Shown one piece after another: positions 5,649 to 20,412 of a stretch of DNA of 32,000 nucleotides. The notes below the pieces were generated by a model. That model did no database searches and was not told the origin of the DNA. It saw only the letters and a program-made list of their open reading frames with translations. The DNA comes from Gammaproteobacteria bacterium (GTDB lineage: Bacteria > Pseudomonadota > Gammaproteobacteria > S012-40). The stretch covers positions 53,313 through 85,312 of the forward strand of contig JAOUMY010000004.1 in NCBI GenBank assembly GCA_029881255.1, read 5' to 3'. How positions within the stretch are numbered: position 1 is the stretch's first letter; each line of letters opens with the position of its first letter. The position numbers were made by a program, and so were the translations under genes.

Positions 5649-6572
5649 GTGAATACTCTGTATCTGCAACTCGCTATGTTTCTCTTGCTGTTTGTCACCG
5701 GGCTTATTCTACGCCAGACCCGGCTTGCGGACAAAGGAATTGCCGCGTCATTACTCAATATTGTCGTCAATTTCGGCTTGCCATTGCTCATATTGGGATC
5801 GGTCACGCAAGTCAAACTGGCCGGATATTACTCCTGGTTTCCATTCATCGCGGCAACGGTGATGTTATCGCTGGGAGCCGTGGCCTATTTTTTTACCAGA
5901 CACAGCACGGTGCTTGAGCAAAAAAGTCGTGGTGTTGTGATTGTCGGCGTGATGATAATGAATCTATCTACGCTTTATCCATTCTTGTCCTGGGCATGGG
6001 GAGACGAAGCCGTAGCGCGTCTTGCATTGGTGGATTTCGGGAATGGTGTGATCGCCTTTAGCGTGGTGGTAATGATAGCCTCATGGCATGGCCGGGGGCA
6101 GGGCAGTGTTGCATCCTCATTGATACTGATGTTGCGGTTCCTGCCGTTCTGGGCATTGTGGCTGGGTTTACTGATTAACGGGTTTGACTGGTATTTTCCG
6201 GAATCGCTGTCGCGTTTCTGTCTTGAATTAGGTAAGTGGATTGTGGTGCTGGTCTTTCTCGCGCTGGGGCTTCATGTCAATATACGCATGGGATTACATC
6301 CCTGGATCTGGCGGACAATTGCTGTGCGTGTTATTGGTGGTCTTTTGTTATCCTCACTGTTGGCGTTTTTGTTACCCTTGGACCCGCTTTCTCGCGCCGT
6401 GGTAATCGTTGCGGGCGCGGCGCCGATTGGTTTCAATACGCTGGTATTCGCCATACGCGAAGATCTGGATCAGGATCTCGCGGCGACTATGGCGTCCTTG
6501 TCCGTGTTGGCCGGTATGATTTACATACCACTACTGATAGTCTTATTGGAACGTTGGCTTTTAGCCGCATAG
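5649..6572 (+). CDS. AEC (auxin efflux carrier)-family transporter
   Basis: Hydrophobic protein VNTLYLQLAMFLLLFVTGLILRQTRLADKGIAASLLNIVVNFGLPLLILGSV ending with AAPIGFNTLVFAIREDLDQDLAATMASLSVLAGMIYIPLLI. GTG at 5649 is a more sensible start than the track start 5547. Confidence 0.8.
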   Translation: MNTLYLQLAMFLLLFVTGLILRQTRLADKGIAASLLNIVVNFGLPLLILGSVTQVKLAGYYSWFPFIAATVMLSLGAVAYFFTRHSTVLEQKSRGVVIVGVMIMNLSTLYPFLSWAWGDEAVARLALVDFGNGVIAFSVVVMIASWHGRGQGSVASSLILMLRFLPFWALWLGLLINGFDWYFPESLSRFCLELGKWIVVLVFLALGLHVNIRMGLHPWIWRTIAVRVIGGLLLSSLLAFLLPLDPLSRAVVIVAGAAPIGFNTLVFAIREDLDQDLAATMASLSVLAGMIYIPLLIVLLERWLLAA

Positions 6573-6578
6573 GGAATT

Positions 6579-7628
6579 ATGCAATTCGATCTTTTCTACG
6601 AGCTGGCTGTGCCAGGCCATCTTGAGCGCAGTGAAAGCGAAACCTATCGCGAAGCGCTTTCGGAAATCGCCTATGCGGATGAATTGGGTTTTGGCTGTGC
6701 CTGGGTGGTGGAACACCATTTCATGCGAGAATATTCGCACCTGTCCAAACCTGAGATTTTCCTGGGCGCATTGTCGCAGCTCACGCGCAAAATACGACTC
6801 GGTCACGCAATTATTCCTCTTCCCTTGCATCACCCGGTGCATATCGCCGAACGCATTGCGACGCTGGATATATTGTCGCAAGGGCGTATAGAGGTTGGTA
6901 TCGGGCGCGGTTTCTCCCCACTGGAGTTTTCGGTGTTTGGTGCCGATATGTCTCAAAGCCGTCAACAAGTGGAATTTTCGCTACAAACGATACGCAATAG
7001 TTTTGAAGGACAGCCGCTTAGCTTTCTGGATAAACAGGGGACTGCGAAAACGTGTGACATCGTACCGCATACCGTTCAGCCAGAAGGTCCGCCGTTATGG
7101 ACCGCGGCGGTTAGCCCCGAAAGTTTTGAGTGGGCCGCACTACAACGATTGGGCGTGCTCGCCGGACCATTCAAACCCTGGTTTATGGTGAAACAGGATA
7201 TCGCGCGATTTCGCGAGTTGTGGAGTGACGAAACGCCGCCAAAAACTGGGATGACAGTTGGAATAGTTTGTCTTGAAGATGGCGATTTGGCGCGAAAATG
7301 GGCGGAAACTTCGCTCACCTGGTTTTATAAAGAGCTGTATCGCACAACGTTGCCAGTATTGGAGAGTTTGTATCCGGGATACGAACACTTTCATGGTCTG
7401 GGTAGATTTCGCAAATTGATCAAAATGGGCATTAATTTGCGGATGCTTGAAACCTTTGGCATGGCCGTGGTGGGTACACCGGAGCAATGTATAAAACGTT
7501 TACGCAAGTATCAACGCGCAGGCGTAAGTCATTTGTTATGCGCGATTGGGGCTGGTGCCATGCCTACGGAGTTAGTAAAAGAGAGTATGAAGTGTATTAG
7601 CGAAAAGGTTATGCCTGCGTTTAGATAA
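6579..7628 (+). CDS. LLM-class flavin-dependent oxidoreductase (luciferase-like)
   Basis: ALSEIAYADELGFGCAWVVEHHF, ATLDILSQGRIEVGIGRGFSPLEF, VGTPEQCIKRLRKYQRAGVSHLLC. Confidence 0.9.
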   Translation: MQFDLFYELAVPGHLERSESETYREALSEIAYADELGFGCAWVVEHHFMREYSHLSKPEIFLGALSQLTRKIRLGHAIIPLPLHHPVHIAERIATLDILSQGRIEVGIGRGFSPLEFSVFGADMSQSRQQVEFSLQTIRNSFEGQPLSFLDKQGTAKTCDIVPHTVQPEGPPLWTAAVSPESFEWAALQRLGVLAGPFKPWFMVKQDIARFRELWSDETPPKTGMTVGIVCLEDGDLARKWAETSLTWFYKELYRTTLPVLESLYPGYEHFHGLGRFRKLIKMGINLRMLETFGMAVVGTPEQCIKRLRKYQRAGVSHLLCAIGAGAMPTELVKESMKCISEKVMPAFR

Positions 7629-7629
7629 G

Positions 7630-8517
7630 ATGAAAGTTTTTATTACGGGCAGTAGCTCACATCTCGCACAGGCCTTGTTGCCGCGCTTGTGCAATGACAA
7701 AGATATCGAGCGGGTATCCGGTCTGGACATCCGACCTTCACGTTTTCACCATCCAAAATTCTTTCCGGTCATCGAAGATATTCGTAGCCGCCGGCTGCAG
7801 GCGAGACTACTTGGTCACGATGCGCTTATTCATATGGCCTATGTTGTACTGCGAGGAAGAATGTCCGAACAGACCATGCGCTCAGTCAATGTTGATGGCA
7901 CTTTACAGTTGTTTTCAACGGCACGGGAAGTCGGTATATCGCGGTTAATCAACCTTTCCAGTGCGGCAGTCTACGGAAGCGGTACCATGCTGAAAGAAGA
8001 GGCCGTGTTCAACCCGCTTCCCGATTTTCTGTATGCAGCACACAAGGTAGACGTTGAACGGCGATTGAAAAAAATTGCGCCACATATTATTCAACTGCGT
8101 CCGCATATCATTCTCGGCCCCTGTGCCCAACCCTTACTAAAACAGCTGTTACGATTACCTTTTTACATAAAACTGGCTGATCCACAGCCCCGGTTGCAGG
8201 CGGTACATGAATCCGATGTTGCTAATGCCATTATGCTTGCCTTGCGGACGACAGGGCAGGGCGCTTTTAATCTTGCACCGGATGATAGCTTGAGCTTTTA
8301 CGACATGATGTATTTACGCCGTAACTTCAATATTGGCATAACGCCAGAGTTGGCGTCCACACTGGTAAATCTGGCATGGAGGCTTACGGGATGGGGCGGC
8401 GAGACTGCCTGGGTGCAGGGCGCAAACAACAGTCTGACCTGTGATAATGGGCGTGCAAAAACTGTATTGGGTTGGCAGCCTATCTATACGACAGAGCAAG
8501 TCATTAAAAGCTGTTGA
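7630..8517 (+). CDS. NAD-dependent epimerase/dehydratase (extended SDR)
   Basis: MKVFITGSSSHLAQALLPRL (variant Rossmann glycine motif), NLSSAAVYGSG, YAAHKVDVER (variant YxxxK), LRPHIILGP. Confidence 0.88.
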   Translation: MKVFITGSSSHLAQALLPRLCNDKDIERVSGLDIRPSRFHHPKFFPVIEDIRSRRLQARLLGHDALIHMAYVVLRGRMSEQTMRSVNVDGTLQLFSTAREVGISRLINLSSAAVYGSGTMLKEEAVFNPLPDFLYAAHKVDVERRLKKIAPHIIQLRPHIILGPCAQPLLKQLLRLPFYIKLADPQPRLQAVHESDVANAIMLALRTTGQGAFNLAPDDSLSFYDMMYLRRNFNIGITPELASTLVNLAWRLTGWGGETAWVQGANNSLTCDNGRAKTVLGWQPIYTTEQVIKSC

Positions 8518-9379
8518 GATCCAGGCGAATATCGTAGCGTTGAAGCTGGCGCATAGTTGGCAATACGCATTTTTCAACGAGGTGTACTCGTTTGGGATTG
8601 CAACGCGCACGCTGTCGCCACAACCGTCCATTTGACAATCCTGCGTATTCATAAATCTTTTCATGCGGCAGATAGAACGCAGTCACAAATTCATTGAAGA
8701 TTCGATTGATCAGGGCTTGGGAGATATAACGTGAAAAACGTGAGGTGCGCGCCATGGCGCGATCTAATTGTTCGCGTGCAAACGCAATATGCCGAGCTTC
8801 ATCCTTGATATGTCGTGTACACATTTGTTGAATCACCGGATTGACTGAGGAAGAAGACTCTTTGCGTATAAACCGGTTCATTTTGTCAGGTACTTCTTCA
8901 CCGATAGTAACGACTAGCCAAAATAATGCGCTGTTAAACGGCAGATGAAGTCCGACGAAATTTGCTAAACCTGGCCACTGATTTTCTATACTGGGTATGG
9001 CAAGTTTTGCCCGATGCATGAGTTCGAGAAACATCAGGCTATGTCCCGCTTCTTCGCGTATCTCATGCAAGATATAGCGGTGTTCTGCAAGCGTTCTATT
9101 TTCTTTGCGCGTGGCCTCAATAAGACGTTTGAGAAAGATTTGCTCCAGCCATACCCCTGCCTGAATGATGCTGATAAATTCGTATTGACTGAGACGTTTT
9201 CTTTGAAATTCAGGCAAAGACTCAAATTCTGCCAATCCTGATAGCGAAATTGCGTCCGCTGGTAGCCAATAGTCATGGATTGAAAGCGCATCCCATTCAA
9301 TGGTCGTGAGAGGATCGGCATATCGGCTGCTGTTATGGGACAGATGCTCGGCTAAGGCACGACGGTTGGCTACGGGCAA
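8504..9379 (-). CDS. AurF-like diiron oxygenase
   Basis: Helical ferritin-like protein with AEHRYILHEIREEAGHSLMFLELM and CTRHIKDEARHIAFAREQL (DExRH-type diiron ligands). Convergent 14-nt overlap with the upstream SDR gene. Confidence 0.72.
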   Translation of the reverse strand: MPVANRRALAEHLSHNSSRYADPLTTIEWDALSIHDYWLPADAISLSGLAEFESLPEFQRKRLSQYEFISIIQAGVWLEQIFLKRLIEATRKENRTLAEHRYILHEIREEAGHSLMFLELMHRAKLAIPSIENQWPGLANFVGLHLPFNSALFWLVVTIGEEVPDKMNRFIRKESSSSVNPVIQQMCTRHIKDEARHIAFAREQLDRAMARTSRFSRYISQALINRIFNEFVTAFYLPHEKIYEYAGLSNGRLWRQRARCNPKRVHLVEKCVLPTMRQLQRYDIRLDLNSF

Positions 9380-9697
9380 ACGAATACTCCTGTTTTACAA
9401 GGGAGAAAATGCTTAGATAATCCGCAATATAGCACTATCTTTCGCGATTCTGAAACCGCGGTATTGGCCAGTTCAGCTCACCTATAGTGCGCCGCGGCAC
9501 TTGTCAGCCGCTGAAAATATTTCCACCCCACGATGTCGCGTGTTGCGTAGCAAGTCGATACTAACTTTGTATATCGGTACGGCGTGTCTCTGACTCTTGC
9601 GCTGACTCAATATAAAGCCAAGTCTTTGCGTTTGAAATTTAAGAAAAAATCATGTCCTGTCGAAATAGCGTATATGGCTAAATAGATAAGGGAAAAT

Positions 9698-11245
9698 ATG
9701 TACAGCGGAACCCTCATTCAATTGGTGAGATTGAGTCTGTTATCAGTGTTGATGACAGCGCCTGTATATGCATGGGATAGGTTAGAACAATTACCAATAC
9801 CGTCTGCAAGGGAGTTGCTCGATGATGAGAAACCCCTTTTTAATCAATCGATAAAGCTTATGGTTGAGGGCAAAAACTCCGATGCGATACGTGCACTACA
9901 ACCGATGGCTGAGGGCGGCGTCGTTGATGCCCAGGTCGCCCTTGGAAATATTTTGGCCCATGAGTCAACTCAGCAACAGCAAAAGAGTGGTTATCGTTAT
10001 CTCTACTTCGCAGCCAATAATGGAAATTGGCATGCGCAGCTGGTGGTATCCAATGCTTTTCGTGAAGGAATTTTTACGCCGGTAGACTATGGCAAGGCGC
10101 GTCATTGGCTTAAACGGGCAGCAGTAAACGGCGATGCCGCCATAGTGTCTCAGGAAACTGAGGCCTTGAATCACACCATGATGCTGGAGTCGGTGTCGCA
10201 GCTAGAGCAGGCACAATACGATGAGGCAGAAAAACTCTTACGCGAACTGGCAGAAGAAAACGTCGTCTCCGCACAGGAAAAGTTGGCGGGTATTTATCAG
10301 AACGGCTTTCTGGGCGAGGACAAAAAAGATGTTGCGCAGAATTGGTGGCATAGAGCCGCGCAACTTGGCTCTCAGGAAGCACAATACCAATTGGCCATGT
10401 CGTATTTTTCCAGTCCTGCCATTAGTGACGAACAACGTCAAAACGCTATTCGTATGCTGGAAAAGGCCGCACAACCGGGTAAGGCTGAGGCGCAATATCA
10501 ACTCGGCATTATCTATCTGACCGGTCAAGGTACAGACAAAGATGCGGATAAGGGTATTTTCTATTACCGCATGGCCGCAGAGCAGGGAAATGTGGATGCG
10601 CAGTACTCCCTTGGTGTTCGTTACGTCCTCGGTGAGGGCGTGAGTAAAAATGAATATGAAGCCCATCGTTGGTTTAAGGCCGCCGCTGATCGCGGTATGT
10701 CGAAGGCGATGCACAATCTCGCCTTAACGTATTTATATGGAATGGGCACTGAACCGGATGCCCAGATGGCAGAACGCTGGTTCCGATCCGCGGCAAGAGA
10801 CGGCGTGGAGAAATCGACGGGATTTATTCAACAAGACACTTCAGTCCAACCAACGCTGGTTCGGGTTGCCGATGCAACACCGAGTGCAACAAAACCTAAG
10901 ACCAGCAAAAAAGCGACGGTTACGAATACTCGGAAAGTTGAAACAGTAAACGGCGCAGACTGGTTTCTCAACCTTCCGACCAAAGGATACACTTTGCAGG
11001 TACTGTCTGCCGCGAATCCCCGTAGTGTCGATGCATTTCTTTCAAAGCACAGGTTAAAGCGAAAAAACTATTTGCACTATATCGATCGATCCAATAAACG
11101 ACCTTTGCATGTTGTTCAATACGGCTATTTTGACAGTCGTGAAGAGGCGGAAAAAGCAGCGAAAGATATGTCGAAGACGCGAAAGAATTTTGAGCCATGG
11201 ATACGTGATGTAAAAAGTATCCGTAATAAAATTGTCAATATATGA
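9698..11245 (+). CDS. Secreted Sel1-repeat protein with C-terminal SPOR-like domain
   Basis: Signal peptide MYSGTLIQLVRLSLLSVLMTAPVYA. Several Sel1 repeats (AQYQLGIIYLTGQGTDKDADKGIFYYRMAAEQGNVDAQYSLGVRYVLGEGVSKNEYEAHRWFKAAADRG). C-terminal GYTLQVLSAANPRSVDAFLSKH...LHVVQYGYFDSREEAEKAAKDM. Confidence 0.88.
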   Translation: MYSGTLIQLVRLSLLSVLMTAPVYAWDRLEQLPIPSARELLDDEKPLFNQSIKLMVEGKNSDAIRALQPMAEGGVVDAQVALGNILAHESTQQQQKSGYRYLYFAANNGNWHAQLVVSNAFREGIFTPVDYGKARHWLKRAAVNGDAAIVSQETEALNHTMMLESVSQLEQAQYDEAEKLLRELAEENVVSAQEKLAGIYQNGFLGEDKKDVAQNWWHRAAQLGSQEAQYQLAMSYFSSPAISDEQRQNAIRMLEKAAQPGKAEAQYQLGIIYLTGQGTDKDADKGIFYYRMAAEQGNVDAQYSLGVRYVLGEGVSKNEYEAHRWFKAAADRGMSKAMHNLALTYLYGMGTEPDAQMAERWFRSAARDGVEKSTGFIQQDTSVQPTLVRVADATPSATKPKTSKKATVTNTRKVETVNGADWFLNLPTKGYTLQVLSAANPRSVDAFLSKHRLKRKNYLHYIDRSNKRPLHVVQYGYFDSREEAEKAAKDMSKTRKNFEPWIRDVKSIRNKIVNI

Positions 11246-12081
11246 GAGCACGGCAGGGCGGATTTATTTCATGGGACACCGTATTCGGCATACTTGCCGG
11301 ATTCGGTTTGTTCGTTTTTGCGGTATGGACATCGACAGACAATGCGTTGGTGTTTTGGAGTGTAGCGAGTTTGTCTATGGTTATCGGCGGTACATTTGCA
11401 GCTACGCTGATTTCATATCAATCCGCCTATGTCATGAAGACGATTAAGGCATTGTTTGGCATTCTAATTCCCACGCGTGTTAGTGCTGGATCTTTATTTG
11501 CCGATGTGGGACGGCTGCTTGAATGGAGTCGTGACGTACGGGAAAAAGGTCCGGCAATATTAGACGATCAGTTGGAAAATGCCGCCGCGAATAAGCTGGA
11601 TAAATTTACGGTGCACGGACTCAACATGCTTTCCAGCGGCTATAAGGGCGAGGAACTGCGGGAGTTGTTAATGGAACTGACAGAGACGATGTTTGATCGT
11701 TCTCAAGTGCAGGTGGGTGTTCTGAAAACGATGGCGCAGTTTGCGCCAGCATTCGGCATGATAGGCACCTTGGTCGGTCTGGTCATCATGCTGGATAACT
11801 TGAAGGCAGATGTAAGCCAGTTGGGGCAAGGACTTGCCTTAGCATTGATAACAACACTCTACGGTGTAATTGCCGCGAATCTCGTGTTTAAGCCAGCGGC
11901 ACTGAAAACGGATCAAAAAAACAATGTTATGCGCTTTCGAAACACGTTGTTATCTGAAGGGTTTGTGATGCTGAGTGAAAAAGTGGATCCACTCAAAATG
12001 CAGGACAAGTTGAACAGCTTTCTAGATCCCGCAGTTCACTTTGACTTGCTTGCAACAAACGAAAAGGGCAAGAAAAGGTAA
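11242..12081 (+). CDS. MotA/PomA-like proton/sodium channel subunit
   Basis: Four predicted TMs; FILGFGLFVF-type TM1 (TVFGILAGFGLFVFAVW), GGTFAATLISY, cytoplasmic SRDVREKGPAILDDQLENA, APAFGMIGTLVGLVIMLDNL, LGQGLALALITTLYGVIAANLVFKPAALK. ATG overlaps the preceding stop (ATGA). Confidence 0.93.
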   Translation: MRARQGGFISWDTVFGILAGFGLFVFAVWTSTDNALVFWSVASLSMVIGGTFAATLISYQSAYVMKTIKALFGILIPTRVSAGSLFADVGRLLEWSRDVREKGPAILDDQLENAAANKLDKFTVHGLNMLSSGYKGEELRELLMELTETMFDRSQVQVGVLKTMAQFAPAFGMIGTLVGLVIMLDNLKADVSQLGQGLALALITTLYGVIAANLVFKPAALKTDQKNNVMRFRNTLLSEGFVMLSEKVDPLKMQDKLNSFLDPAVHFDLLATNEKGKKR

Positions 12082-12087
12082 AACGCC

Positions 12088-12768
12088 ATGGCTACCAGAT
12101 ACCGAAAACGGTCTGCGGTGTCGGACGAAGATAGCGAAGACTGGTTGCTGACATACTCGGATGCGGTGACATTGTTGATGACGTTTTTAGTTTTGATGTT
12201 GTCCGTATCGACTATCGATCAGGCGAAATATGAGCAGGTTGTAGAGTCGATTAAAGAGAAAGGCCTGGATCAGGACAAGCAGTATGTATCGCCGTTCGAG
12301 ACGCTACAGGAAAAATTGAATGATGTTGCCAAAGAACATGATATGGAAAAAAACATGACCGTGACGCGCCAACCAAAAGGGCTGACGATAGAGTTGGCAT
12401 CGTCCAGTTTGTATACCGTGGGTTCTGCAGACATACAGGATGCGGCACTGGCGGCCTTGAGTGATGTGGCGTCGTCGATAAAAGGTTTTGACTATGACAA
12501 TTACCAGGTGGAGATTGAGGGGCATACGGACAATGTGGCAATCAATACCGAGCGCTATCCCTCGAATTGGGAGTTGTCTGTGCACCGGGCAACGAACGTC
12601 GTGCGCCATTTTCTGCAGAGTGGCATCGATAACGATCGTATCAAGGTCGCAGGTTATGCCGATACGCGTCCAAAAGTACCGAACCAGGACGTAGCTGGAA
12701 ATGCAATCCCTGGTAATCAGGCTATCAACCGACGCGTGGTGATTCACGTGGTGAGAAAAGAGGATTAG
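12088..12768 (+). CDS. MotB-like stator subunit with OmpA-type peptidoglycan-binding domain
   Basis: WLLTYSDAVTLLMTFLVLMLSVS with ion-binding-type Asp25 (codon 12160-12162). OmpA-C motif VEIEGHTDNVAINTERYPSNWELSVHRATNVVRHFL...NRRVVIHV. Confidence 0.94.
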   Translation: MATRYRKRSAVSDEDSEDWLLTYSDAVTLLMTFLVLMLSVSTIDQAKYEQVVESIKEKGLDQDKQYVSPFETLQEKLNDVAKEHDMEKNMTVTRQPKGLTIELASSSLYTVGSADIQDAALAALSDVASSIKGFDYDNYQVEIEGHTDNVAINTERYPSNWELSVHRATNVVRHFLQSGIDNDRIKVAGYADTRPKVPNQDVAGNAIPGNQAINRRVVIHVVRKED

Positions 12769-12777
12769 GGGCAGGTA

Positions 12778-13902
12778 ATGGAAATGACTTCACTTGTCAG
12801 AAATGGTAGCAAACGGAAGGCGCTGTTCTTGCTCATGTCTTTTTTCGTGATTTCACCAGACGCAGTGATGGCTGCTGATCCGTCAGCTACACCACAAGTC
12901 GAACGCTTCAAGTTGAGTTATCGCGATGCAGAGATGATTCAGTATATAGATGCTCAGGAAAAATTCGTTAAGTTGCTTGATTCGCCGGGTGTGTTAACAG
13001 AGGAAGTATTAAAGGATATAGATTTTGAAGTAAGAAATATTGCCTTTTATCGCTTCAACGACAGACAGTACAAAAAGTTTCCACGCATATTCTACGACTC
13101 GATTGAACAAAGACTAATGGACCGTTTTATTCGGGCCAAACGTTTCGCAGTACATGAATGTTTTGAATGTAAAACGACACGCGTACTGTTAAAGGAAAAG
13201 CAGTTTTCCGTTTTGCGCCAACTTGATTCGAACGAGGCACTCAACGAAGTGGGGAAGAAAATTGGCGTCGACAGCTTTGTTTTGTGGGAAGCCTATATGT
13301 ATAAGGGTGACCCTATGCTTAATATACGCGTCGTCTCGGCAGCAGATGGTCAGGTCCGATGGTCGAAACAATACCTGAGTGAACCTGCCTATGAATTTGA
13401 GTGGGAGATGTATAGCTCACTGTGGGGAATAAAGGCGATAAGGGCAAGAACTTCGGGTAGTGGTTCGGATATCAGCGTATCGCCCATTCTCGACATAGGT
13501 CTCAGAACCCTGTCGCGCTCAACTATTTCGGACAAAATTTATTATGGCTACGGCGTCGAAGCCTTCTTCAATACGATGTATCGCACCCAGGTGGATCTTT
13601 ACGGCTTGAGTCTGAATGCCCGTGTGGGCGTCGAAATGGATAGTATGCTTGGGCTGGAAATGAAGAACTATGGCAATTGGCTGATGTATCTTTCCGTTGG
13701 TCAGGCGTTCTTGAAAAACAATCCTGTGTTATTGATTCGGGGTGGTCTGGAGATACGTATAAACAGGCGTAATTTTATTGAGATTGGTGGCGTGTTCATT
13801 CCTACGACGACATTTAGCAACGGATCAGCTTTGGCAAATTACAGTGATGTGTCTTCGCTTAGTAACCTTGGTTACGACGTCACTATCGGTTTTCGTTTTT
13901 AG
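12778..13902 (+). CDS. Predicted exported protein: N-terminal periplasmic domain plus C-terminal outer-membrane beta-barrel-like region, function unknown
   Basis: Hydrophobic signal ALFLLMSFFVISPDAVMAAD. Domain with LNEVGKKIGVDSFVLWEAY...LNIRVVSAADGQVRWSKQYL. C-terminal alternating strands ending in Phe (NLGYDVTIGFRF). Confidence 0.6.
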   Translation: MEMTSLVRNGSKRKALFLLMSFFVISPDAVMAADPSATPQVERFKLSYRDAEMIQYIDAQEKFVKLLDSPGVLTEEVLKDIDFEVRNIAFYRFNDRQYKKFPRIFYDSIEQRLMDRFIRAKRFAVHECFECKTTRVLLKEKQFSVLRQLDSNEALNEVGKKIGVDSFVLWEAYMYKGDPMLNIRVVSAADGQVRWSKQYLSEPAYEFEWEMYSSLWGIKAIRARTSGSGSDISVSPILDIGLRTLSRSTISDKIYYGYGVEAFFNTMYRTQVDLYGLSLNARVGVEMDSMLGLEMKNYGNWLMYLSVGQAFLKNNPVLLIRGGLEIRINRRNFIEIGGVFIPTTTFSNGSALANYSDVSSLSNLGYDVTIGFRF

Positions 13903-13912
13903 GTGAATTGAC

Positions 13913-14602
13913 ATGGGTAAATATTCTGGTCGATTGAAATTAGTTTACATCTCACTGGTGGTAGTGGCGATCTCCGCTTGTATGCCGCGTATTCCTACCA
14001 ATCAGACTCAGACTCGCGACGTAGCTCTGGAAGACGTGCAGAACGAAATGCAGCAAAAAGGGCAACGAGTCAAGATGATTAATGAGCCCGGGATGATTCA
14101 TATTCAACGCCAGACAGAAGAGTATTCGATCAGCATGGTCCTCGATGCCAGTGACGAAAATATCTATTTCGTGATGGATTTGCCGCAGGAAGAGGAAAAG
14201 ATTCAGGAACCCGTACCGGTTGAAGAGCCACCGCTTCCAGAACCGGAGCAAGTTATCCCTGAGCCACCGCCAGAGGAAGAGAACGCAGTCGAAGAAGAAA
14301 AGCCTGCGCCGGTAGAAGAGGCTGCAACCGTAGAGCCGGAAGTCGACGATACTCGCGCGAGCAAATACATTTTGTATGCGCAAACCTATTTTCTGGAAAA
14401 GAAATATGCACGCGCATTAGAAGAGGTTAACCGTGCCGTAGGCTACTCGCCAGGATCTGCGGTAGCGCATTCATTGCGCGGTTCTATATTTTACAAGCTG
14501 GGCGAAAAAGAACAGGCTCGCAACGCTTGGACACGGGCATTGGAACTCGATGAAAGTCTCGACAATGTTAAGAAAATGTTAGGTCAGTTGGATCAAAAAT
14601 AG
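13913..14602 (+). CDS. TPR lipoprotein with Pro/Glu-rich linker
   Basis: Lipobox VVVAISAC; Pro/Glu-rich EPVPVEEPPLPEPEQVIPEPPPEEENAVEEEKPAPVEE; TPR-like ASKYILYAQTYFLEKKYARALEEVNRAVGYSPGSAVAHSLRGSIFYKLGEKEQARNAWTRALELD. Confidence 0.82.
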   Translation: MGKYSGRLKLVYISLVVVAISACMPRIPTNQTQTRDVALEDVQNEMQQKGQRVKMINEPGMIHIQRQTEEYSISMVLDASDENIYFVMDLPQEEEKIQEPVPVEEPPLPEPEQVIPEPPPEEENAVEEEKPAPVEEAATVEPEVDDTRASKYILYAQTYFLEKKYARALEEVNRAVGYSPGSAVAHSLRGSIFYKLGEKEQARNAWTRALELDESLDNVKKMLGQLDQK

Positions 14603-14626
14603 TTGCTTGTACCGGGAATCTGCATA

Positions 14627-16735
14627 ATGTTTGAATCGGGTCATAAACGCAAATTGATAATCAGAGCACTAGCGCTGGTGTTGTGCTATCTCATTGCGTT
14701 CCCGGTCGGCCTTGCAGAGGAGATCGAGCGACGTAGTAAGGTCAGTGATCTGGCACGCAGTACATTCGAGAAGGATCTGGAGCAGCGACTTTCCCGCGAT
14801 ATCAAAGCCTATCTCAATCACGAATTCTTTATCGTACAAATAAATGCGCAACTGGAAAATATCGAGAAGTGGGATATCAGCGAAGTTGTGGTGCCGGTTG
14901 AGCCGCCTCCTCAAGCTCCACCACAGGCTGCACCTCAAGCTCCACCACCGGTACCCGCGATAGATGAAAAGAAGAAAACGATATTATCGCAGATGGAGCT
15001 CGATACCAAAGACGGAATCAATAGTAGTATTCTGGAAAAAAGTATCGGTGTTGATACGGCTTTGCCCGGTGTACCTTTGTCCGATGAATTTATCGAGGAA
15101 GAACGAAAACGTTTGGTTGAGTTGGAGCAACTCAAACAGGAACTGAAGCAAAAACTGGAAGAGCCGCCGAAAGCGGAACCACCAGCGCCACCTCCACCAG
15201 TGCCTCAGGTGCAAACAAAAAAGGAAAAGGTAGAAAAACTACTCAGTAAACAGGAAGCGATCCGTAAACTGAATGCAAAGGTGATGCTGGATGAACACGT
15301 CTCTCCGGAGCAGGAAGTGTTTATTCGCAATCTGGTGATAGAGAAGGCCGATCTCTCTTTTTTGCGTGGAGACGAACTACGTATTTTGCGTTCCAAGTTT
15401 CCTGCGGCATCAGTACTGGATGAGCCAGTAGAAGAAGAGCCCAAGCCAGAAGAAGTACCGGAGGAGGCGGCTGAAACTCCGGCGGAAGAACCTCCCACAT
15501 GGTGGGAGGAAAATTGGCAATACGTGCTCGCGGCCGGTGCCATTCTAGCGCTGCTATTGCTGTGGCTTTTTGTCAGACGTAGAGAAAAGGCGCCTGTGAA
15601 TACCGAACCCATGGTGGTGGAGTCTGAGGCCTCGCGCAAGCTTGAAGAATTAATCCGAAAAATGCACGAGAAAGTCGATACGGTAAACGAAAACCGTCTT
15701 GGGGCGATTAAGGAAGAAATTGTTAGTCTCGCCGTAACAGATCAGGAAATGGTCAGCGAGCAAATCAAGGAATGGCTTGGTAGTGCCTCTGAGGATGACA
15801 AAAACAAGTCTGGCTTACTTTATCAAATGTTGGGTGAAGGCTTATATCGCGGCTTGGCGCATCCCGTGTTGACACCGGAAAAGCAAATTGCCGTCGTCGG
15901 TAAGATACTCGAAATCGAAGAGATGATGTCTCCCGATGAGAAACTGGCACTGGCGGAAAATGTGTTTCAGGCCATGATGCAACGCCGCTATCAGCAACAA
16001 CACGATTTGCGCGACGAGAATAAACCGTTCGCCTTTCTTGAAAAACTCAATGACGATCAGATTCTATATCTGTTGAAAGAAGAGCCGCTCAAAGTCAAGG
16101 CTTTGGTAATGTCGCAGTTGTCCTCTAATCGAGGTGCGTCCTTACTGAAACGTTTCAACATTGCCAGTCGTAGTAAGATCGCGATGGAGATCAGCCAGTT
16201 CGCCAAGCTACCGGTATCCGCGTTTCGGGATATCGCTAACAGGCTCGCAAAAAAGGCGGTTCACGTTCCGAGTTACGAAAATCTGGAAGTCGAGGGCATC
16301 GATTTGCTGACAGATATGTTGGACCATATGAATTCTGCGGAAGAAACGGCCCTGCTCAAATCCCTGCAGCGAGAAAATCCAGATCTCTACTATGCAATAC
16401 GCCAGGTATATGTCAGCTTCGACGATATCGTACAGATACCTACGCTTGGACTTAAAAATGTTATTCGCGAACTTGATCGTGAAGTGCTTGCCTTGGCCTT
16501 GTATGACGCAGACGAAAGCTACCGTGGCGTAATCTTCGGCACTATGCTGGAAAGGCCTCGGGCAATGCTGCAGTCGTCAATTAAGGCTTTGGGCGTACCG
16601 GAGCCAGATGCGGTGAACGATGCGAAACGCAAAGTGTCACGACAGGCTCGGGCGATGTTAAAGGCGGGTGTATTTGAGATGCCGAGTGGAAAGCCCAATA
16701 AAAAGACGACGCCAAACGAGAAGAAAAGCGCCTAA
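14627..16735 (+). CDS. Membrane-anchored FliF(C-terminal)-FliG-like fusion protein
   Basis: ATG at 14627 (the track uses TTG 14603). Residue numbers from the track start: signal/TM1 LIIRALALVLCYLIAFPVGLA; RBM3-like FEKDLEQRLSRDIKAYLNHEFFIVQINAQLE (aa 55-85) and AIRKLNAKVMLDEHVSPEQEVFIRNLVIEKADLSFLRGDELRILRSKFP (aa 219-267); TM2 WWEENWQYVLAAGAILALLLLWLFVRRR (aa 300-327); FliF-tail-like KEEIVSLAVTDQEMVSEQIKEWLG; FliG-like FAFLEKLNDDQILYLLKEEPLKVKALVMSQLSSNRGASLLKRF and LLTDMLDHMNSAEETALLKSLQRENPDLYYAIRQVYVSFDDIVQIPTLGLKNVIRELDREVLALALYDADESYRGVIFGTMLERPRAML. Confidence 0.85.
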   Translation: MFESGHKRKLIIRALALVLCYLIAFPVGLAEEIERRSKVSDLARSTFEKDLEQRLSRDIKAYLNHEFFIVQINAQLENIEKWDISEVVVPVEPPPQAPPQAAPQAPPPVPAIDEKKKTILSQMELDTKDGINSSILEKSIGVDTALPGVPLSDEFIEEERKRLVELEQLKQELKQKLEEPPKAEPPAPPPPVPQVQTKKEKVEKLLSKQEAIRKLNAKVMLDEHVSPEQEVFIRNLVIEKADLSFLRGDELRILRSKFPAASVLDEPVEEEPKPEEVPEEAAETPAEEPPTWWEENWQYVLAAGAILALLLLWLFVRRREKAPVNTEPMVVESEASRKLEELIRKMHEKVDTVNENRLGAIKEEIVSLAVTDQEMVSEQIKEWLGSASEDDKNKSGLLYQMLGEGLYRGLAHPVLTPEKQIAVVGKILEIEEMMSPDEKLALAENVFQAMMQRRYQQQHDLRDENKPFAFLEKLNDDQILYLLKEEPLKVKALVMSQLSSNRGASLLKRFNIASRSKIAMEISQFAKLPVSAFRDIANRLAKKAVHVPSYENLEVEGIDLLTDMLDHMNSAEETALLKSLQRENPDLYYAIRQVYVSFDDIVQIPTLGLKNVIRELDREVLALALYDADESYRGVIFGTMLERPRAMLQSSIKALGVPEPDAVNDAKRKVSRQARAMLKAGVFEMPSGKPNKKTTPNEKKSA
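14909..14947 (+). repeat. Short in-frame direct repeat CCTCAAGCTCCACCA, 24-nt period, encoding Pro/Ala/Gln-rich linker
   Basis: CCTCAAGCTCCACCA at 14909-14923 and again at 14933-14947. Confidence 0.85.
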
Positions 16736-16790: not shown

Positions 16791-17357
16791 TCAGGCAATA
16801 TATCGCCGCGACACTTCAGGCCAGTCATATTCGCGTAACTCTTTTTCCAAAGCCTGCGCCTGGTGGCGTTCGCGCAAACTACGCATTAAACAGGTGCGTG
16901 ATTGAAACATCATCATGGCTTCCAGCGGATTAAATTTCATTCCCTCTATAAATAGCAACATGATAGCATCGTGTATGCCAGGAAATTGTTCGAATCGTTT
17001 CAAGGTCTCTTCATGGACTTCATCCCACTCCTCATTTGAGTCGTGACACCAACCGAGTGTATGAAAGATCGGTGGAAGTAGCAGCAGTAGGTTCGGGAAT
17101 CGAATTTCCGCAGGCATAAAAACCACACGACGGATAGAGAAGGAAATGGCATAACTCAGTGGGAGATACAATTGAGCATTGTCTTCTAACAGAGTAAGAG
17201 TGTTCGCCTGCAACAGGTCTTCAACCAGGTCAGCCAGATCTTCCGCACTTTGGGCATGTGAAAGCGCTACGAAGGTTTGATTGACAAAGGCGAGGGGGTT
17301 TTGTGTGTATTCGTATCGTGGCTTTGTATCAAGAGTGTTTTCATCAACGGTAATCAT
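16791..17357 (-). CDS. Conserved-looking hypothetical protein, 188 aa
   Basis: ORF with normal composition, convergent to the motor operon; no family recognised. Confidence 0.6.
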   Translation of the reverse strand: MITVDENTLDTKPRYEYTQNPLAFVNQTFVALSHAQSAEDLADLVEDLLQANTLTLLEDNAQLYLPLSYAISFSIRRVVFMPAEIRFPNLLLLLPPIFHTLGWCHDSNEEWDEVHEETLKRFEQFPGIHDAIMLLFIEGMKFNPLEAMMMFQSRTCLMRSLRERHQAQALEKELREYDWPEVSRRYIA

Positions 17358-17528: not shown

Positions 17529-17939
17529 CTAACCCATCTGAGGTGACAGCCTTTCCAAGGCCTCAGAGGCGTAGATACGTACTTTCTGACTCGTGTCACT
17601 CAATGCCTGGATCAAGGCCGGTCGGCAAAGCTGGGCAATAGGTGCGATATTACGCAGCGCGCGCGCGGCGGCGATACGTAACGCAGTTTCACCGTCTCTA
17701 AGGGTATGCACCAAGGCCGGTAGGGCTGGCGATGCCTGTTCACCTAACATACCAATAATGTCAAAGCATATGCTTCGCATGAGCGGATCGTTGTCGTTTA
17801 AGGCTTTGTCGGCTAGTTCGCAAACACTATTGTTATCCAACGGGCTGATCTGAGCCAGATATCTTGCAGTTTCCTGCTCTCGTTGCCTGAAATCGGTGTC
17901 TTCCATTGTTGTCATTTCATGTACCTCGTTTGTGCACAT
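17529..17939 (-). CDS. HEAT-repeat protein
   Basis: LMRSICFDIIGMLGEQASPALPALVHTLRDGETALRIAAARALRNIAPIAQLCRPALIQALSDTSQKVRIYASEALERL. Confidence 0.8.
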   Translation of the reverse strand: MCTNEVHEMTTMEDTDFRQREQETARYLAQISPLDNNSVCELADKALNDNDPLMRSICFDIIGMLGEQASPALPALVHTLRDGETALRIAAARALRNIAPIAQLCRPALIQALSDTSQKVRIYASEALERLSPQMG

Positions 17940-18129
17940 ATCCCGATAGAGCTCATCTATAGTTCAAGCATAGAGCCAGGTTTGTTGGAAAGCTGTGAGT
18001 TTCTTCACAAGGAACACGAATTTTTTTGCAATAAGTTCCCAAAAGACTCAGTACTGCCTCAGACTCTAGTTTGGGTTGGGTGTCGCAATGTGGTTTAATG
18101 TTGTCACAACAAACGACTGGGAATTACGG

Positions 18130-18870
18130 ATGGCAGGCGGGCGCAGGAAATTTGCTCTATTATTTGCCTTGTTTGGCAGCTTTCGTGATCTCGCCCCCAT
18201 CATTTTAGTTGTCGCCTTTTTTCAGTTGCTGGTGTTGCAGCAACCCATTCCTAATATGACCGATATCATCATCGGCGCGTTACTCGTGGCAGTTGGTCTC
18301 ACGCTATTTATTCAGGGCCTTGAGCAGGGTTTGTTTCCCATCGGAGAAAGTATGGCCTACGCCTTTGCGCGTAAGGGCAGTCTCTTTTGGTTACTGGCAT
18401 TCGCTTTCGCTCTGGGATTTGGCACTACCGTAGCGGAACCTGCGTTAATCGCCGTGGCTAAAGAAGCTGCTGCAGTCGCAGCCGGCGGCGGTGTCATTGA
18501 AAATACAGACGAGGCGAAGAGTGATTATGCCTATGGACTTCGGCTTACAGTGGCCTTGTCAGTCGGCGTGGCGATTGTGCTCGGGGTGTGGCGCATACTT
18601 AAGGGCTGGCCTATCCACTACATGATAGTCGTCGGATACATAGGTGTCGTCATCATGACAGCATTTGCGCCTAAAGAGATCATTGGTATTGCTTATGATT
18701 CTGGCGGTGTTACCACTTCGACTATTACCGTACCTTTAGTGACAGCACTCGGTGTTGGCCTGGCCTCCAGCATTAAGGGGCGTAATCCCATGATCGATGG
18801 ATTTGGGCTTATCGCCTTTGCTTCCTTATTACCCATGATATTTGTCATGGGGTACGGGATGTTGTTCTGA
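18130..18870 (+). CDS. DUF1538 membrane protein (first paralog)
   Basis: Hydrophobic; [29 protein letters not shown] and [49 protein letters not shown]. The track start is 18076; ATG 18130 is an alternative. Confidence 0.82.
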
Positions 18871-19664
18871 TGGAACTGATATTACAAATACTATCGACTT
18901 TACTCGCCACTATCGGTGATGTGTTACCGATCGCAGCCATCATCTTTGGCTTTCAATTTCTGGTTATACGCAAACCCGTTCCTCAACTAAAACGCGTCCT
19001 GGTGGGATTTGTCTATGTCCTGCTTGGCTTAGCGCTTTTCCTTGTTGGATTGGAAAAGGCCTTGTTCCCACTCGGCAAGTTAATGGCGCAACAATTGACA
19101 GATCCTGAATTTATTTCAAGAGGAATGGACGTAGTTACAACAGCGTTGTCCTGGCAGGACTACAAATGGGTATACATTTTTGCCTTTGCCATCGGATTTT
19201 CCACCACGATTGCCGAGCCATCTTTGATTGCGGTAGCCATTAAGGCACAGGAAGTGTCCGGTGGAACCATAAGTGTGTGGGGTTTGCGCATAGCCGTAGG
19301 TCTGGGAGTGGCCATAGGGATTGCCCTGGGTACCTTCCGTATCGTAACGGGTACACCTTTGCACTTTTATATTATTTCCGGCTATATCGTGGTCGTCATC
19401 CAGACCTTTTACGCACCGCGCATGATAATCGCCTTGGCATACGACTCTGGCGGGGTTACAACGTCGACTGTGACGGTACCATTAGTAGCTGCGCTGGGAT
19501 TGGGTTTGGCCAATACCGTGCCGGGGCGCAGCCCGCTGCTGGACGGATTTGGTCTAATTGCCTTTGCCAGTTTATTCCCCATGATGACAGTCATGGGCTA
19601 CGCGCAGTTTTCAGACTGGCGTTCCAAACAAAACAGGAAACGATATACGGAAGGAGGGAAGTAA
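18870..19664 (+). CDS. DUF1538 membrane protein (second paralog)
   Basis: Same signatures as the preceding gene: [82 protein letters not shown]. 1-nt overlap with the first paralog. Confidence 0.85.
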   Translation: MELILQILSTLLATIGDVLPIAAIIFGFQFLVIRKPVPQLKRVLVGFVYVLLGLALFLVGLEKALFPLGKLMAQQLTDPEFISRGMDVVTTALSWQDYKWVYIFAFAIGFSTTIAEPSLIAVAIKAQEVSGGTISVWGLRIAVGLGVAIGIALGTFRIVTGTPLHFYIISGYIVVVIQTFYAPRMIIALAYDSGGVTTSTVTVPLVAALGLGLANTVPGRSPLLDGFGLIAFASLFPMMTVMGYAQFSDWRSKQNRKRYTEGGK

Positions 19665-20014
19665 TGCATTTTAAATTAATTATTGCACTGATCGAGGACG
19701 ACAAAACTGAGGCCGTGCTCGAAGCTGCCCGCAAGCAGGGCGCGACTGGGGCCACGATTATCAATCACACGCGTGGCGAGGGCTTGGTTCCAACCAAGAC
19801 ATTCCTGGGCTTGTCATTGGAAACTCAGCGGGACATGTTGATGTTTCTGGTCGAGGAACATTTGTGCCGAAAAATTCTTGAGACGATTGCGGAAGTCGCA
19901 AGATTCGATGTGGATTCGGGGGCGGGAATCGCCTTTCAGATAAATGTTGAAGATGCAGTGGGGGTGTCTCATCAGGTCAGTCAATTGTCAAAATTGGTGG
20001 AGGATAATCTATGA
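19664..20014 (+). CDS. P-II-like nitrogen-regulatory family protein
   Basis: MHFKLIIALIEDDKTEAVLEAARKQGATGATIINHTRGEGLVPTKTFLGLSLETQRDMLMFLVEEHLCRKILETIAEVARFD. ATG overlaps the preceding stop by 1 nt; the track ORF 19277..20014 is an upstream over-extension. Confidence 0.82.
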   Translation: MHFKLIIALIEDDKTEAVLEAARKQGATGATIINHTRGEGLVPTKTFLGLSLETQRDMLMFLVEEHLCRKILETIAEVARFDVDSGAGIAFQINVEDAVGVSHQVSQLSKLVEDNL

Positions 20015-20412
20015 GTGAGAAAGCGCCGATCAAAGTCAGAGATGTGATGAAGGCAGAGTTCGATGTAGTCGATGGTATGGCGACGATTGATCAGGCAGTG
20101 GAACGTATGCAGCATGTCGATACTAAATGTTTAATTGTCGACAAACGACACGAAAACGACGAGTACGGCATTCTTCTGTTGTCAGATATTGCGCGTAAGG
20201 TATTGGCCAGAGATCTTGCTATGGATCGAGTCAATGTCTACGAAATCATGGCCAAGCCAGTCTTACATGTGGACCCGGAAATGGATATACGTTACTGCGC
20301 GCGTTTTCTCGATCGCTTTGATTTGTCGCGTGCGCCAGTTGTGGAAAACCGCAAAGTCATTGGCATCGTAAGTTATACCGATTTGGTATTGAAAGGATTG
20401 TGTCGGAAATAG
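20011..20412 (+). CDS. CBS-domain pair protein
   Basis: IKVRDVMKAEFDVVDGMATIDQAVERMQHVDTKCLIV...YEIMAKPVLHVDPEMDIRYCARFLDRFDLSRAPVVENRKVIGIVSYTDLVLKGL. 4-nt overlap with the P-II-like gene. Confidence 0.9.
   Translation: MSEKAPIKVRDVMKAEFDVVDGMATIDQAVERMQHVDTKCLIVDKRHENDEYGILLLSDIARKVLARDLAMDRVNVYEIMAKPVLHVDPEMDIRYCARFLDRFDLSRAPVVENRKVIGIVSYTDLVLKGLCRK

Follow-up and report, generated by a model that had tools for sequence, protein, structure and literature searches.

A candidate ion-driven rotor-stator machine of flagellar-type parts, encoded without a flagellum in a six-gene gammaproteobacterial operon

A 32-kb stretch of DNA from a member of the Gammaproteobacteria (GenBank assembly GCA_029881255.1, contig JAOUMY010000004.1, positions 53,313 to 85,312; hereafter the window) harbors an operon of six plus-strand open reading frames (ORFs), here called g1 to g6, at positions 9698-16735 of the window. 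The operon probably encodes a self-contained, ion-driven rotor-stator machine that is made of flagellar-type parts and operates without a flagellum, a reading to which we give a probability of roughly 60%. Two components carry it. The product of g6 reads as a short FliF, comprising two transmembrane (TM) helices, one RBM3/collar domain and a tail, naturally fused to a complete FliG with M and C domains and an N-like module. The products of g2 and g3 form, judging from their sequences, a flagellar MotA/MotB-type stator pair that keeps the residues needed for ion conduction and torque delivery. The remaining genes encode a Sel1-repeat protein with a peptidoglycan-binding domain (g1), an exported protein predicted to end in an outer-membrane barrel (g4) and a lipoprotein with TPR repeats (g5).

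The genes are tightly packed, with junctions of -4, 6, 9, 10 and 24 nt from g1 to g6, the last falling to 0 nt if g6 starts at a TTG codon at 14603. A 318-nt intergenic region lies 5' of g1, a convergent gene lies 3' of g6, and the base composition of the operon is unremarkable. An earlier note on this DNA had described six closely spaced genes on the same strand at 9698-16735 and had seen no export, rod, hook or filament genes among them; all six ORFs are present at these coordinates, and no flagellar gene was found in the rest of the window. The gene identities proposed there recur as Pfam matches: Sel1 and SPOR in g1, MotA_ExbB in g2, MotB_plug and OmpA in g3, TPR in g5, and FliG_M and FliG_C in g6. 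Its parse of g6 (a TM segment, a split RBM3-like region with proline-rich linkers, a second TM helix, a FliF-like tail and FliG N/M/C-like modules) was tested element by element and holds, as do its TPR lipoprotein, which carries an ISAC lipobox, and its MotA/MotB-like stator with a TM Asp25, for which the Pfam domains, torque loop, prolines and Asp25 were all found. The description of g4 as exported and barrel-like is refined by structure prediction to a periplasmic domain resembling LpoB-C and TolB-N followed by a small outer-membrane β-barrel.

The predicted rotor subunit, g6 (14627..16735, plus strand, as are all features of the operon), consists of 702 amino acids (aa). The ATG start agrees with the deposited 702-aa protein (P0001), and the alternative TTG at 14603 gives 710 aa. 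Domain boundaries were drawn from Pfam, from hhalign profile comparisons and from AlphaFold2 (AF2) models compared with known folds by Foldseek. The C-terminal half contains a FliG middle domain (aa 466-557, 16022..16297; Pfam FliG_M 4.4e-10, alignment to PDB 1lkv) and a FliG C-terminal torque domain (aa 579-684, 16361..16678; Pfam FliG_C 1.3e-20, PDB and hhalign alignments). The g6 family profile matches the MC region of Thermotoga maritima FliG (PDB 1lkv) with E=1.5e-23 over positions 472-693, and it also matches the FliG part of an engineered Vibrio FliF-FliG fusion (8z4d) and, by hhalign at 93% probability, residues 108-327 of E. coli FliG. Both FliG_M and FliG_C are matched by Pfam in 28/28 diverse relatives. 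Arg643 of the torque helix corresponds to E. coli R281, and this position is basic in 45/45 family members. The FliM-binding EHPQR motif is largely lost: only the Glu is kept (45/45), the H, P and Q positions vary, and g6 itself reads KEEPLKV.

The N-terminal half of g6 is periplasmic and membrane-embedded. It begins with a signal peptide or first TM anchor (aa 9-29, 14651..14713), recognised by hydropathy across the family, whose -3/-1 positions are variable in the family alignment (A1). The N-terminal half of an RBM3-like motif follows (aa 30-90, 14714..14896; strand, helix, long strand), and its C-terminal half (aa 197-265, 15215..15421; long strand, helix, strand) carries an invariant RGD at aa 247-249. 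Between them, in the position of the FliF collar, lies an insert (aa 91-196, 14897..15214; delimited in alignments A1/A4 and of low pLDDT, the AF2 confidence score, in the monomer model) that contains proline-rich linkers, a conserved SQMELxTxDGI...LPGxP motif and a long charged helix. The LPGVP of g6 occupies aa 146-150 (15062-15076), of which L146, P147, G148 and P150 vary little or not at all throughout the superfamily. A second TM helix (aa 298-316, 15518..15574), also seen by hydropathy and located about 45 aa past the RGD in roughly 130 family members, leads into a cytoplasmic tail (aa 317-390, 15575..15796) that resembles the FliG-binding tail of FliF by position and is collinear with the tail of an unfused short FliF.

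The identity of the periplasmic region as RBM3 comes from its fold. An AF2 model computed from 14 sequences for aa 30-291 gives a core of pLDDT 85-94 with the order strand-helix-long strand, insert, long strand-helix-strand, that is, a single split RBM. In a Foldseek comparison with the PDB, the top 18 matches are all FliF RBM3/collar structures from Salmonella, Vibrio and Bacillus (E 3e-7 to 4e-5, probability 1.00), with target-normalised TM-scores of about 0.45 for RBM3-only chains; SpoIIIAG appears at rank 20 with E=0.14. The fusion therefore has significant matches on both sides, to FliG (1lkv, 1.5e-23) and to FliF (these 18 structures), as the proposal of the earlier note required. At the sequence level, Pfam YscJ_FliF_C is marginal in g6 itself (E=0.1, aa 209-266) and matches 11/28 diverse members, best in P0044 (4.3e-5, 24.4 bits against a gathering threshold of 23.8), where the match spans the whole periplasmic region. 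A sequence search of the PDB with the periplasmic profile (A2) returned nothing even at E<=10, and relatives were seen only by fold comparison. An hhalign alignment of A2 to residues 372-431 of E. coli FliF is in register but has a probability of 3% and serves as a pointer, not as evidence. The Pfam domain of RBM1 and RBM2, YscJ_FliF (PF01514), was matched in 0/28 members scanned. RBM1/RBM2, the region homologous to SctJ, provide the housing for the type III export gate.

The composition of g6 becomes clearest in a relative in which the two halves are separate genes. Soluble FliG proteins of about 310 aa rank among the matches of the g6 family, and one of them, P0104, has Pfam FliG_N, M and C domains; its residues 9-302 align to positions 391-687 of the g6 profile with an hhalign probability of 99.7% and E=1.4e-26. 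Its locus (L057:1-3227; GCA_044345325.1, JAZHCF013964016.1) encodes a partial MotA, a MotB, a short FliF of 382 aa and this 310-aa FliG. The 382-aa protein matches Pfam YscJ_FliF_C over the full profile (4.7e-10), and its residues 41-378 are collinear with g6 profile positions 49-399 (hhalign, 93% probability), a stretch that takes in the LPG motif and RGD block as well as the second TM helix and cytoplasmic tail. Because this locus carries both proteins unfused and collinear with g6, g6 can be read as a short FliF joined to a complete FliG. Likewise, aa 391-465 (15797..16021) are assigned as a FliG_N-like module because P0104, with its FliG_N, aligns to g6 aa 391-687, despite the lack of a direct Pfam FliG_N match in this segment of g6, where matches overlap the M domain. 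In relatives, too, Pfam FliG_N matches mostly overlap the M domain, a cross-match between repeats, and they were not used to place the N domain. Neither a g4 nor a TPR gene is visible on the 5-kb contig of the unfused pair; a TonB-dependent receptor gene lies downstream on the opposite strand. A separate family of about 590-656 aa combines FliG and TPR in one chain, with FliG_N/M/C in P0197 and P0198, and FliG_M and FliG_C without a FliG_N match in P0199; these proteins are possibly another non-canonical use of FliG.

The stator is encoded by g2 (11242..12081), a MotA-like A subunit of 279 aa (Pfam MotA_ExbB 1.7e-22), and g3 (12088..12768), a MotB-like B subunit of 226 aa (MotB_plug 2.4e-16, OmpA 2.5e-16). 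Alignment to E. coli MotA and MotB (reference sequences from NC_000913) places the torque loop RxxGxxxL[D/E] of g2 at R100...G103...L107-D108, with R100 and D108 equivalent to MotA R90 and E98, and finds the equivalents of both P173 and P222. In g3, Asp25 corresponds to the channel residue D32 of MotB, and both the plug and the OmpA-like peptidoglycan-binding domain are present. The torque-loop motif, both prolines and the MotB Asp are invariant in the seven close loci; in the wider family, 38/38 MotA-like proteins have both prolines and 35/35 MotB-like proteins the channel Asp, and in the MotA loop 26/38 have an acidic residue and 26/38 a basic one at the respective positions. With 72-78% identity, g2 is the most conserved gene of the module. 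Its best NCBIfam matches are MotP and PomA (1e-30 to 1e-37), all far below the equivalog cutoffs, whereas the TolQ and ExbB models reach only 0.006-0.07. For the stator as a whole, the best equivalog scores are MotP with 127 bits against a cutoff of 394 and MotD with 169 against 283. By these cutoffs g2 and g3 would not be orthologous to a named flagellar stator (MotAB, PomAB, MotPS, MotCD). Their type is indicated by the plug and the torque loop, which separate flagellar stators (the FIT clade) from generic Tol/Exb-like motors in a recent survey (PMC12505986).

The partner proteins direct attention to the outer membrane. g4 (12778..13902) has no Pfam or NCBIfam match, and a sequence search of the PDB with its profile (A3) gave nothing even at E<=10; its description rests on an AF2 model (pLDDT 78 overall, 85-95 in the barrel) and on Foldseek. 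The N-terminal half of the exported protein would be a periplasmic α/β domain like that of LpoB (C-domain 4q6l, 6e-4, TM-score 0.65) and the N-domain of TolB. The second domain would be a small outer-membrane β-barrel ending in GFRF, with matches to the OmpA TM domain (1bxw, 6e-5) as well as OmpW, Ail, NspA and PagL. A C-terminal Phe, the signature of the outer-membrane β-signal, ends 34/43 homologues. g4 has no sequence relatives outside the module, and its 22 clusters share contigs with g6. A CxxC in the sequence HECFECKTT (aa 128-131, 13159-13170) is confined to the gammaproteobacterial and Vibrio clades, is invariant where present, lies in a low-confidence loop of the modelled periplasmic domain and may be a disulfide or metal site. 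g5 (13913..14602) is a lipoprotein with an acidic, proline-rich linker and C-terminal TPR repeats (Pfam TPR_2 1.5e-9, TPR_1 8e-8); its lipobox is ISAC with Cys23, nearly all homologues have a Cys right after the hydrophobic core of the signal peptide, and the gene is kept in the module across clades. g1 (9698..11245) is exported, with five Sel1 repeats (Pfam, 1.2e-38) and a C-terminal SPOR peptidoglycan-binding domain (2.9e-11). Its match to NCBIfam MotX (2e-14) stays at 53.6 bits against a cutoff of 330, and other Sel1 families score similarly. Only the 7 gammaproteobacterial loci have g1, a clade-specific accessory and possibly a stator scaffold or peptidoglycan anchor.

A set of this kind recalls Tol-Pal: an A/B motor, a proline-rich protein anchored in the inner membrane, a TolB-N/LpoB-like g4, a TPR protein, and OmpA-like and SPOR domains. 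The operon could accordingly be a linear force transducer, with g6, energised by the stator, spanning the periplasm like TolA or TonB and pulling on g4 or signalling to it, together with a CpoB-like g5 and, in one clade, the septum-targeting SPOR protein g1, in envelope integrity, outer-membrane constriction or the control of peptidoglycan synthases; an AsmA-like envelope gene directly downstream of the module in Vibrio would suit such a role. We consider this quite unlikely. Tol and Ton couple through a TM helix of the transducer, whereas coupling here would run through a complete cytoplasmic FliG with its torque-helix Arg; the periplasmic fold of g6 is that of a ring-building RBM3/collar; and in the stator are found a plug and torque loop of the flagellar kind, which generic Tol/Exb-type motors lack (PMC12505986).

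The module extends far beyond the clade in which it was found. A word-indexed protein search gave 19 clusters of close g6 relatives, all from uncultured Gammaproteobacteria, and a scan of GTDB with two clade-specific peptide patterns gave 3 loci among about 185,000 species representatives. The word-indexed search badly undercounts the family, and a diverse profile added almost nothing to it; an exhaustive HMMER search was used instead. This profile search of 1.84 billion representatives returned 122 matches below 1e-30. About 130 of the best 150 matches share an N-terminal TM or signal segment, LPGxP, an RGD about 65 aa further on, a TM helix about 45 aa beyond that, and FliG. At 50% identity the g6 superfamily falls into at least 130 clusters. 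Named hosts include Gammaproteobacteria and Pseudomonadota metagenome-assembled genomes (MAGs), Fibrobacterales MAGs and, in culture, Vibrio nigripulchritudo, with many strains, as well as Vibrio sp. SCSIO 43132. Among the sequences with the module are Fibrobacterales GCA_047518385.1, GCA_029884425.1 and two contigs of 1.9 and 2.2 Mb (ERZ25059891:ctg47752c and ERZ26859072:ctg12719). Annotation pipelines name the relatives "hypothetical", "FliG C-terminal domain-containing" or "flagellar motor switch protein FliG".

Gene order is permuted between lineages. The gammaproteobacterial clade has g1-MotA-MotB-g4-TPR-fusion (7 loci), and a large distant subgroup, found in metagenomes with the subgroup alignment A6, has fusion-g4-TPR-MotA-MotB (42 loci, where the contig extends far enough). 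A third order, barrel protein-TPR-fusion-MotA-MotB, occurs in L010 and in V. nigripulchritudo (L058), where the barrel protein matches the g4 profile; the 409-aa protein in the barrel position of L010 has no significant g4 match. L011 reads TPR-fusion-MotA-MotB. The V. nigripulchritudo module, which lies at about 3.07 Mb of AP027045.1 (fusion protein of the WP_052189023.1 family) and adjoins the nqr operon and an AsmA-like gene, keeps the g4 CxxC and terminal Phe, the MotA loop RTDGITGLE and the MotB YSD motif. Despite the permuted order, the five-gene core of fusion, barrel, TPR, MotA and MotB stays together in 52 loci, and the flanking genes are unrelated between lineages. Recurrence of the set in 52 independent loci with unrelated flanks is far beyond chance. 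Clustering of 370 flanking ORFs showed lineage-specific housekeeping synteny only and no sixth conserved partner. The unit kept throughout the superfamily numbers five genes, g1 being specific to the gammaproteobacterial clade. The earlier note had made its proposal depend on the genes being conserved together and on their not always lying inside flagellar clusters. All six are kept together in the close clade and five of the six across phyla, and a phmmer search with 23 E. coli flagellar proteins (E<1e-3) gave 0 matches in the 52 loci with 8-10 kb of flanking sequence, so that in these loci the homologues never lie inside a flagellar cluster.

Conservation of this depth bears on whether the operon has a function at all. 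Rotor proteins without filament genes are reported from 11% of non-motile species, and remnants are one of the explanations discussed for them (PMC12199754). The reading of the operon as a functionless, decaying leftover of a flagellar system since lost deserves next to no weight here and, given the conservation pattern, is effectively refuted. The ORFs are intact, and functional residues are invariant at an overall identity of about 20-25%; in the g6 superfamily, LPGxP, the G and D of RGD and the PFxF that opens FliG_M are invariant at a mean identity of about 22%. The five-gene set, non-flagellar genes included, is kept across phyla and in many strains and clusters, one 90% cluster holding 131 members.

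A link to flagella is suggested by the region upstream of g1. A promoter-like element with σ28-like hexamers, TTAAG-N15-GTCGAAA (9639..9665, plus strand), lies 59 nt upstream of g1. In 1.46 Mb, the pattern T[TAC]AAG-N14-16-G[TC]CGA.A has 13 matches, of which 7 lie 56-66 nt upstream of g1, one in each gammaproteobacterial locus, against an expectation of 0.03 for the upstream regions after shuffling. The motif, TTAAG-N14-16-GTCGA(G/A)A, is kept even where the surrounding sequence has diverged. Compared with the σ28 consensus TCTAAAG / GCCGATAA (PMC12784957), it agrees at 4/7 and 5/8 positions, the CGA core included, and the assignment to σ28 is tentative. The motif was not found outside the gammaproteobacterial clade, no conserved σ54 motif was seen, a generic scan for σ70 promoters and terminators returned no more than in shuffled sequence, and Rfam gave no element in 146 kb.

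This promoter, present in 7/7 gammaproteobacterial loci, is the first of several features that would fit an accessory to a canonical flagellum encoded elsewhere. The fusion and its dedicated stators would then join, template or modify the usual basal body, for instance as an additional set of rotor and stator, as an assembly platform or as a polar landmark, and the operon would be part of the flagellar regulon. The stator is of the flagellar type, with plug and OmpA domain, and not of the Tol/Exb type; the Sel1 repeats of g1 are weakly MotX-like; and the hosts include V. nigripulchritudo. Vibrios are polar-flagellated. Such a role nevertheless appears rather unlikely to us. The module adjoins no flagellar gene in 52 loci and supplies its own FliF-like ring domain, its fusion lacks the EHPQR motif and RBM1/2, and its obligatory outer-membrane barrel and TPR lipoprotein are not known flagellar parts. 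It also occurs in Fibrobacterales MAGs, and the promoter matches just 4/7 and 5/8 of the consensus and is missing from the other clades.

Some neighbouring genes would fit a role in signalling. In V. nigripulchritudo a response regulator-GGDEF gene (L058:6953-8176) lies directly upstream of the module, and in an unrelated lineage a Protoglobin-GGDEF gene (L008:1262-2299) lies upstream with two genes between. In the window, a 145-aa ORF (20420-20857, minus strand), 3.7 kb downstream of the operon, is a marginal PilZ match (22.7 bits against a cutoff of 22.5), and it is not a conserved neighbour in other loci. YcgR-type PilZ proteins act as brakes on flagellar motors through FliG/MotA. With the GGDEF and PilZ neighbours and the partly non-canonical charges at the rotor-stator interface in mind, the module might be a regulated ion channel or mechanosensor, in which a FliG-like ring gates or senses the ion flux through MotAB, for example in surface sensing or c-di-GMP circuits, without sustained mechanical work. 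This is very improbable: the GGDEF and PilZ neighbours are not conserved across loci, an obligatory outer-membrane barrel and lipoprotein are hard to fit to signalling, and the torque-related residues of the stator are strongly conserved.

In the reading preferred here, that of a self-contained rotor-stator machine, g6 would oligomerise through RBM3 and so form, in the inner membrane, a ring like the MS-ring, underlain by a ring of its FliG domains. MotA5B2-type units, anchored to peptidoglycan by MotB, would pass H+ or Na+ through Asp25, and the MotA loop (R100/D108) would push the FliG_C torque helix at R643, so that the ring turns. Because RBM1/RBM2, the EHPQR motif and the export genes are absent, this ring would carry no export apparatus, rod, axial structure or switch complex, and it would probably run unswitched. 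Its output may leave through the LPGxP-bearing, proline-rich insert that replaces the collar loop of FliF and that would engage the TPR lipoprotein, the periplasmic domain of the barrel protein or both. The result would be a coupling of inner-membrane ion-motive force to a complex anchored in the outer membrane, and the task served may be surface movement, envelope mechanics or another. In the gammaproteobacterial clade, g1 would probably scaffold or position the stators on peptidoglycan, by analogy with MotX/MotY. More tentatively, and at somewhat less than even odds, such modules may constitute a widespread, unrecognised class of envelope-spanning rotary nanomachine, in which a free MS-ring/FliG rotor is driven by MotAB-type stators and passes torque through the LPGxP arm to the outer-membrane barrel and TPR lipoprotein in place of a rod and filament; this class could be either a surviving relative of a pre-flagellar motor, whose rotor and stator predated the type III export apparatus or existed apart from it, or an ancient co-option of motor parts to new mechanical work at the cell surface.

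Several points weigh against this picture. From sequence, the rotor-stator interface appears only partly canonical, because the acidic pair of FliG is replaced and the MotA R90 equivalent is Gln in 11/38 family members. The equivalent of D288 is Ser in 38/45 proteins and that of D289 acidic in only 23/45, g6 having Ser/Ser, and the K264 and R297 equivalents of the torque helix are not conserved. A tabulation of charges in the MotA loop and the FliG torque helix revealed no clear pattern of covariation. A ring of 2 x n TM helices without a gate would enclose a lipid plug, for which we know of no precedent. Ring formation, rotation and a contact of g6 with g4 or g5 we infer from the parts. The conserved σ28-like promoter hints at co-regulation with flagella in the gammaproteobacterial clade, and, with flagellated hosts such as Vibrio and Ectothiorhodospiraceae-type MAGs, a connection to the flagellar system is conceivable. 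Because of this promoter and of flagellated hosts such as Vibrio, the term non-flagellar is limited to composition and location and does not imply independence from the motility regulon. The proposal of the earlier note, a stator plus a ring or rotor machine put to a non-flagellar use, stands as regards parts, conservation and location; that the ring rotates, and what it drives, we infer.

Other genes around the module differ from lineage to lineage. In V. nigripulchritudo, a 1307-aa AsmA/DUF748 protein of the TamB/AsmA-like envelope lipid-transport family (L058:13419-17342) is encoded directly after the MotB-like gene on the same strand. In L011, a MoxR AAA/DUF58/DUF4381/VWA (Bat-like) set (L011:13496-16573) follows the MotB-like gene on the same strand, its genes overlapping or abutting. 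Repeated TGTGGATAA-like sequences, which resemble the reverse complement of the DnaA-box consensus, occur within 300 nt upstream of the fusion gene in three AT-rich loci (L021, L030, L048), and dnaA and dnaN (L010:18517-20975) lie 6 kb from the module in L010. The module may lie near the replication origin in some lineages. In the window itself, two minus-strand genes convergent with the operon, for a 188-aa protein without a family (16791-17357) and a 136-aa HEAT-repeat protein (17529-17939), are not conserved beside the module elsewhere. They are followed on the plus strand (18076-20412) by a tightly packed cassette that comprises a tandem pair of DUF1538 membrane proteins, an ORF in the 19277-20014 frame and a CBS-domain protein, and that looks like an uncharacterised transporter. 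Further downstream (21961-25633, plus strand), a DEAD/Helicase_C/MZB (MrfA-like) helicase gene overlaps a gene for an exonuclease of the RNase_H_2 superfamily, a pair that looks like MrfAB-type DNA repair. Upstream of the operon (4481-9379), genes for oxidative enzymes, including an HODM-like protein, a 341-aa protein of unknown family, a luciferase-like monooxygenase, an NAD-dependent epimerase and an AurF-like di-iron N-oxygenase, are possibly a cluster for small-molecule tailoring.

Among known systems, the flagellar motor's core (FliF, FliG and stators such as MotA5B2, PomAB and MotPS) comes close to the module. Common features are the stator plug, OmpA-like anchor, channel Asp, prolines and charged torque loop and, in g6, the RBM3/collar fold, two TM helices, cytoplasmic tail, FliG M and C domains preceded by an N-like module, and torque-helix Arg. 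Unlike the flagellar core, the module has FliF and FliG as one polypeptide that lacks RBM1/RBM2, the EHPQR motif and the acidic pair of FliG. Genes for FliM/N, type III secretion, rod, hook or filament are absent from its surroundings, a proline-rich LPGxP insert takes the place of the collar loop, and the obligatory partners are an outer-membrane barrel and a TPR lipoprotein.

A natural, shortened FliF-FliG fusion is also present in the Chlamydiaceae, organisms without a flagellum (Bergeron, 2016, PeerJ, PMC4768692). It combines a signal peptide or TM segment, reduced periplasmic RBMs, a second TM helix and FliG sequence within about 330 aa, with RBM2 plus an RBM-like segment and only the M region of FliG; it is proposed to act with the injectisome (SctQ), and no partner of the MotAB, barrel or TPR kind has been described (PMC4768692). 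In contrast, the fusion of the module is about 600-730 aa long, has RBM3/collar only and a full FliG of N-like, M and C modules, and is encoded with MotAB in one operon; the two are set apart on the basis of their descriptions. Engineered FliF-FliG fusions of Salmonella and Vibrio (FliFG, PDB 8z4d/8z4g) are, by contrast, full-length laboratory constructs within a flagellar system, and such covalent 1:1 fusions can still form MS/S-rings (PMC11481574); 8z4d is among both the sequence and the fold matches of g6. SpoIIIAG resembles the periplasmic part of g6 in its split RBM with a β insert and its large, periplasm-like ring, but it has neither FliG nor a stator, belongs to sporulation in Firmicutes and is a much weaker fold match (E=0.14).

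Tol-Pal, Ton, Agl-Glt and GldLM/T9SS likewise comprise an ion-driven A/B motor of the inner membrane encoded with envelope-spanning, TPR and outer-membrane components, and pass inner-membrane energy to the outer membrane or the surface. However, they use Tol/Exb/GldL-type stators, which lack the plug and torque-generating loop of flagellar ones, and none drives a FliG or RBM3 ring. The T-ring proteins of Vibrio offer a parallel for g1, in which MotX-like Sel1 repeats are joined to a peptidoglycan-binding domain. MotX together with the peptidoglycan-binding MotY stabilises PomAB. In g1 this domain is SPOR and not OmpA-like, and the gene is limited to one clade.

No description of the module was found in 8 million full texts, a collection that leaves aside subscription-only literature, and it is not mentioned in a 2026 preprint on the ancestral flagellum; it appears to be undescribed. 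If the reading as a rotor-stator machine is true, the module would be the simplest natural rotor-stator pair for biophysics, with no switch, no export gate and FliF and FliG in a 1:1 ratio, and it would bear on the origin of the flagellar motor and on the question of separate histories for motor and export apparatus. The module is directly testable because it is present in V. nigripulchritudo, which is cultured and sequenced. To our knowledge, every known use of a FliG/FliF ring lies inside the flagellum or, in Chlamydia, beside the injectisome, and every known non-flagellar 5:2 motor employs stators of the Tol/Exb/GldL type and no FliG rotor. Compared with these systems, the module is a flagellar-type rotor-stator motor in a new, flagellum-less and outer-membrane-linked configuration, and the chance that it represents a new category of machine is substantial.

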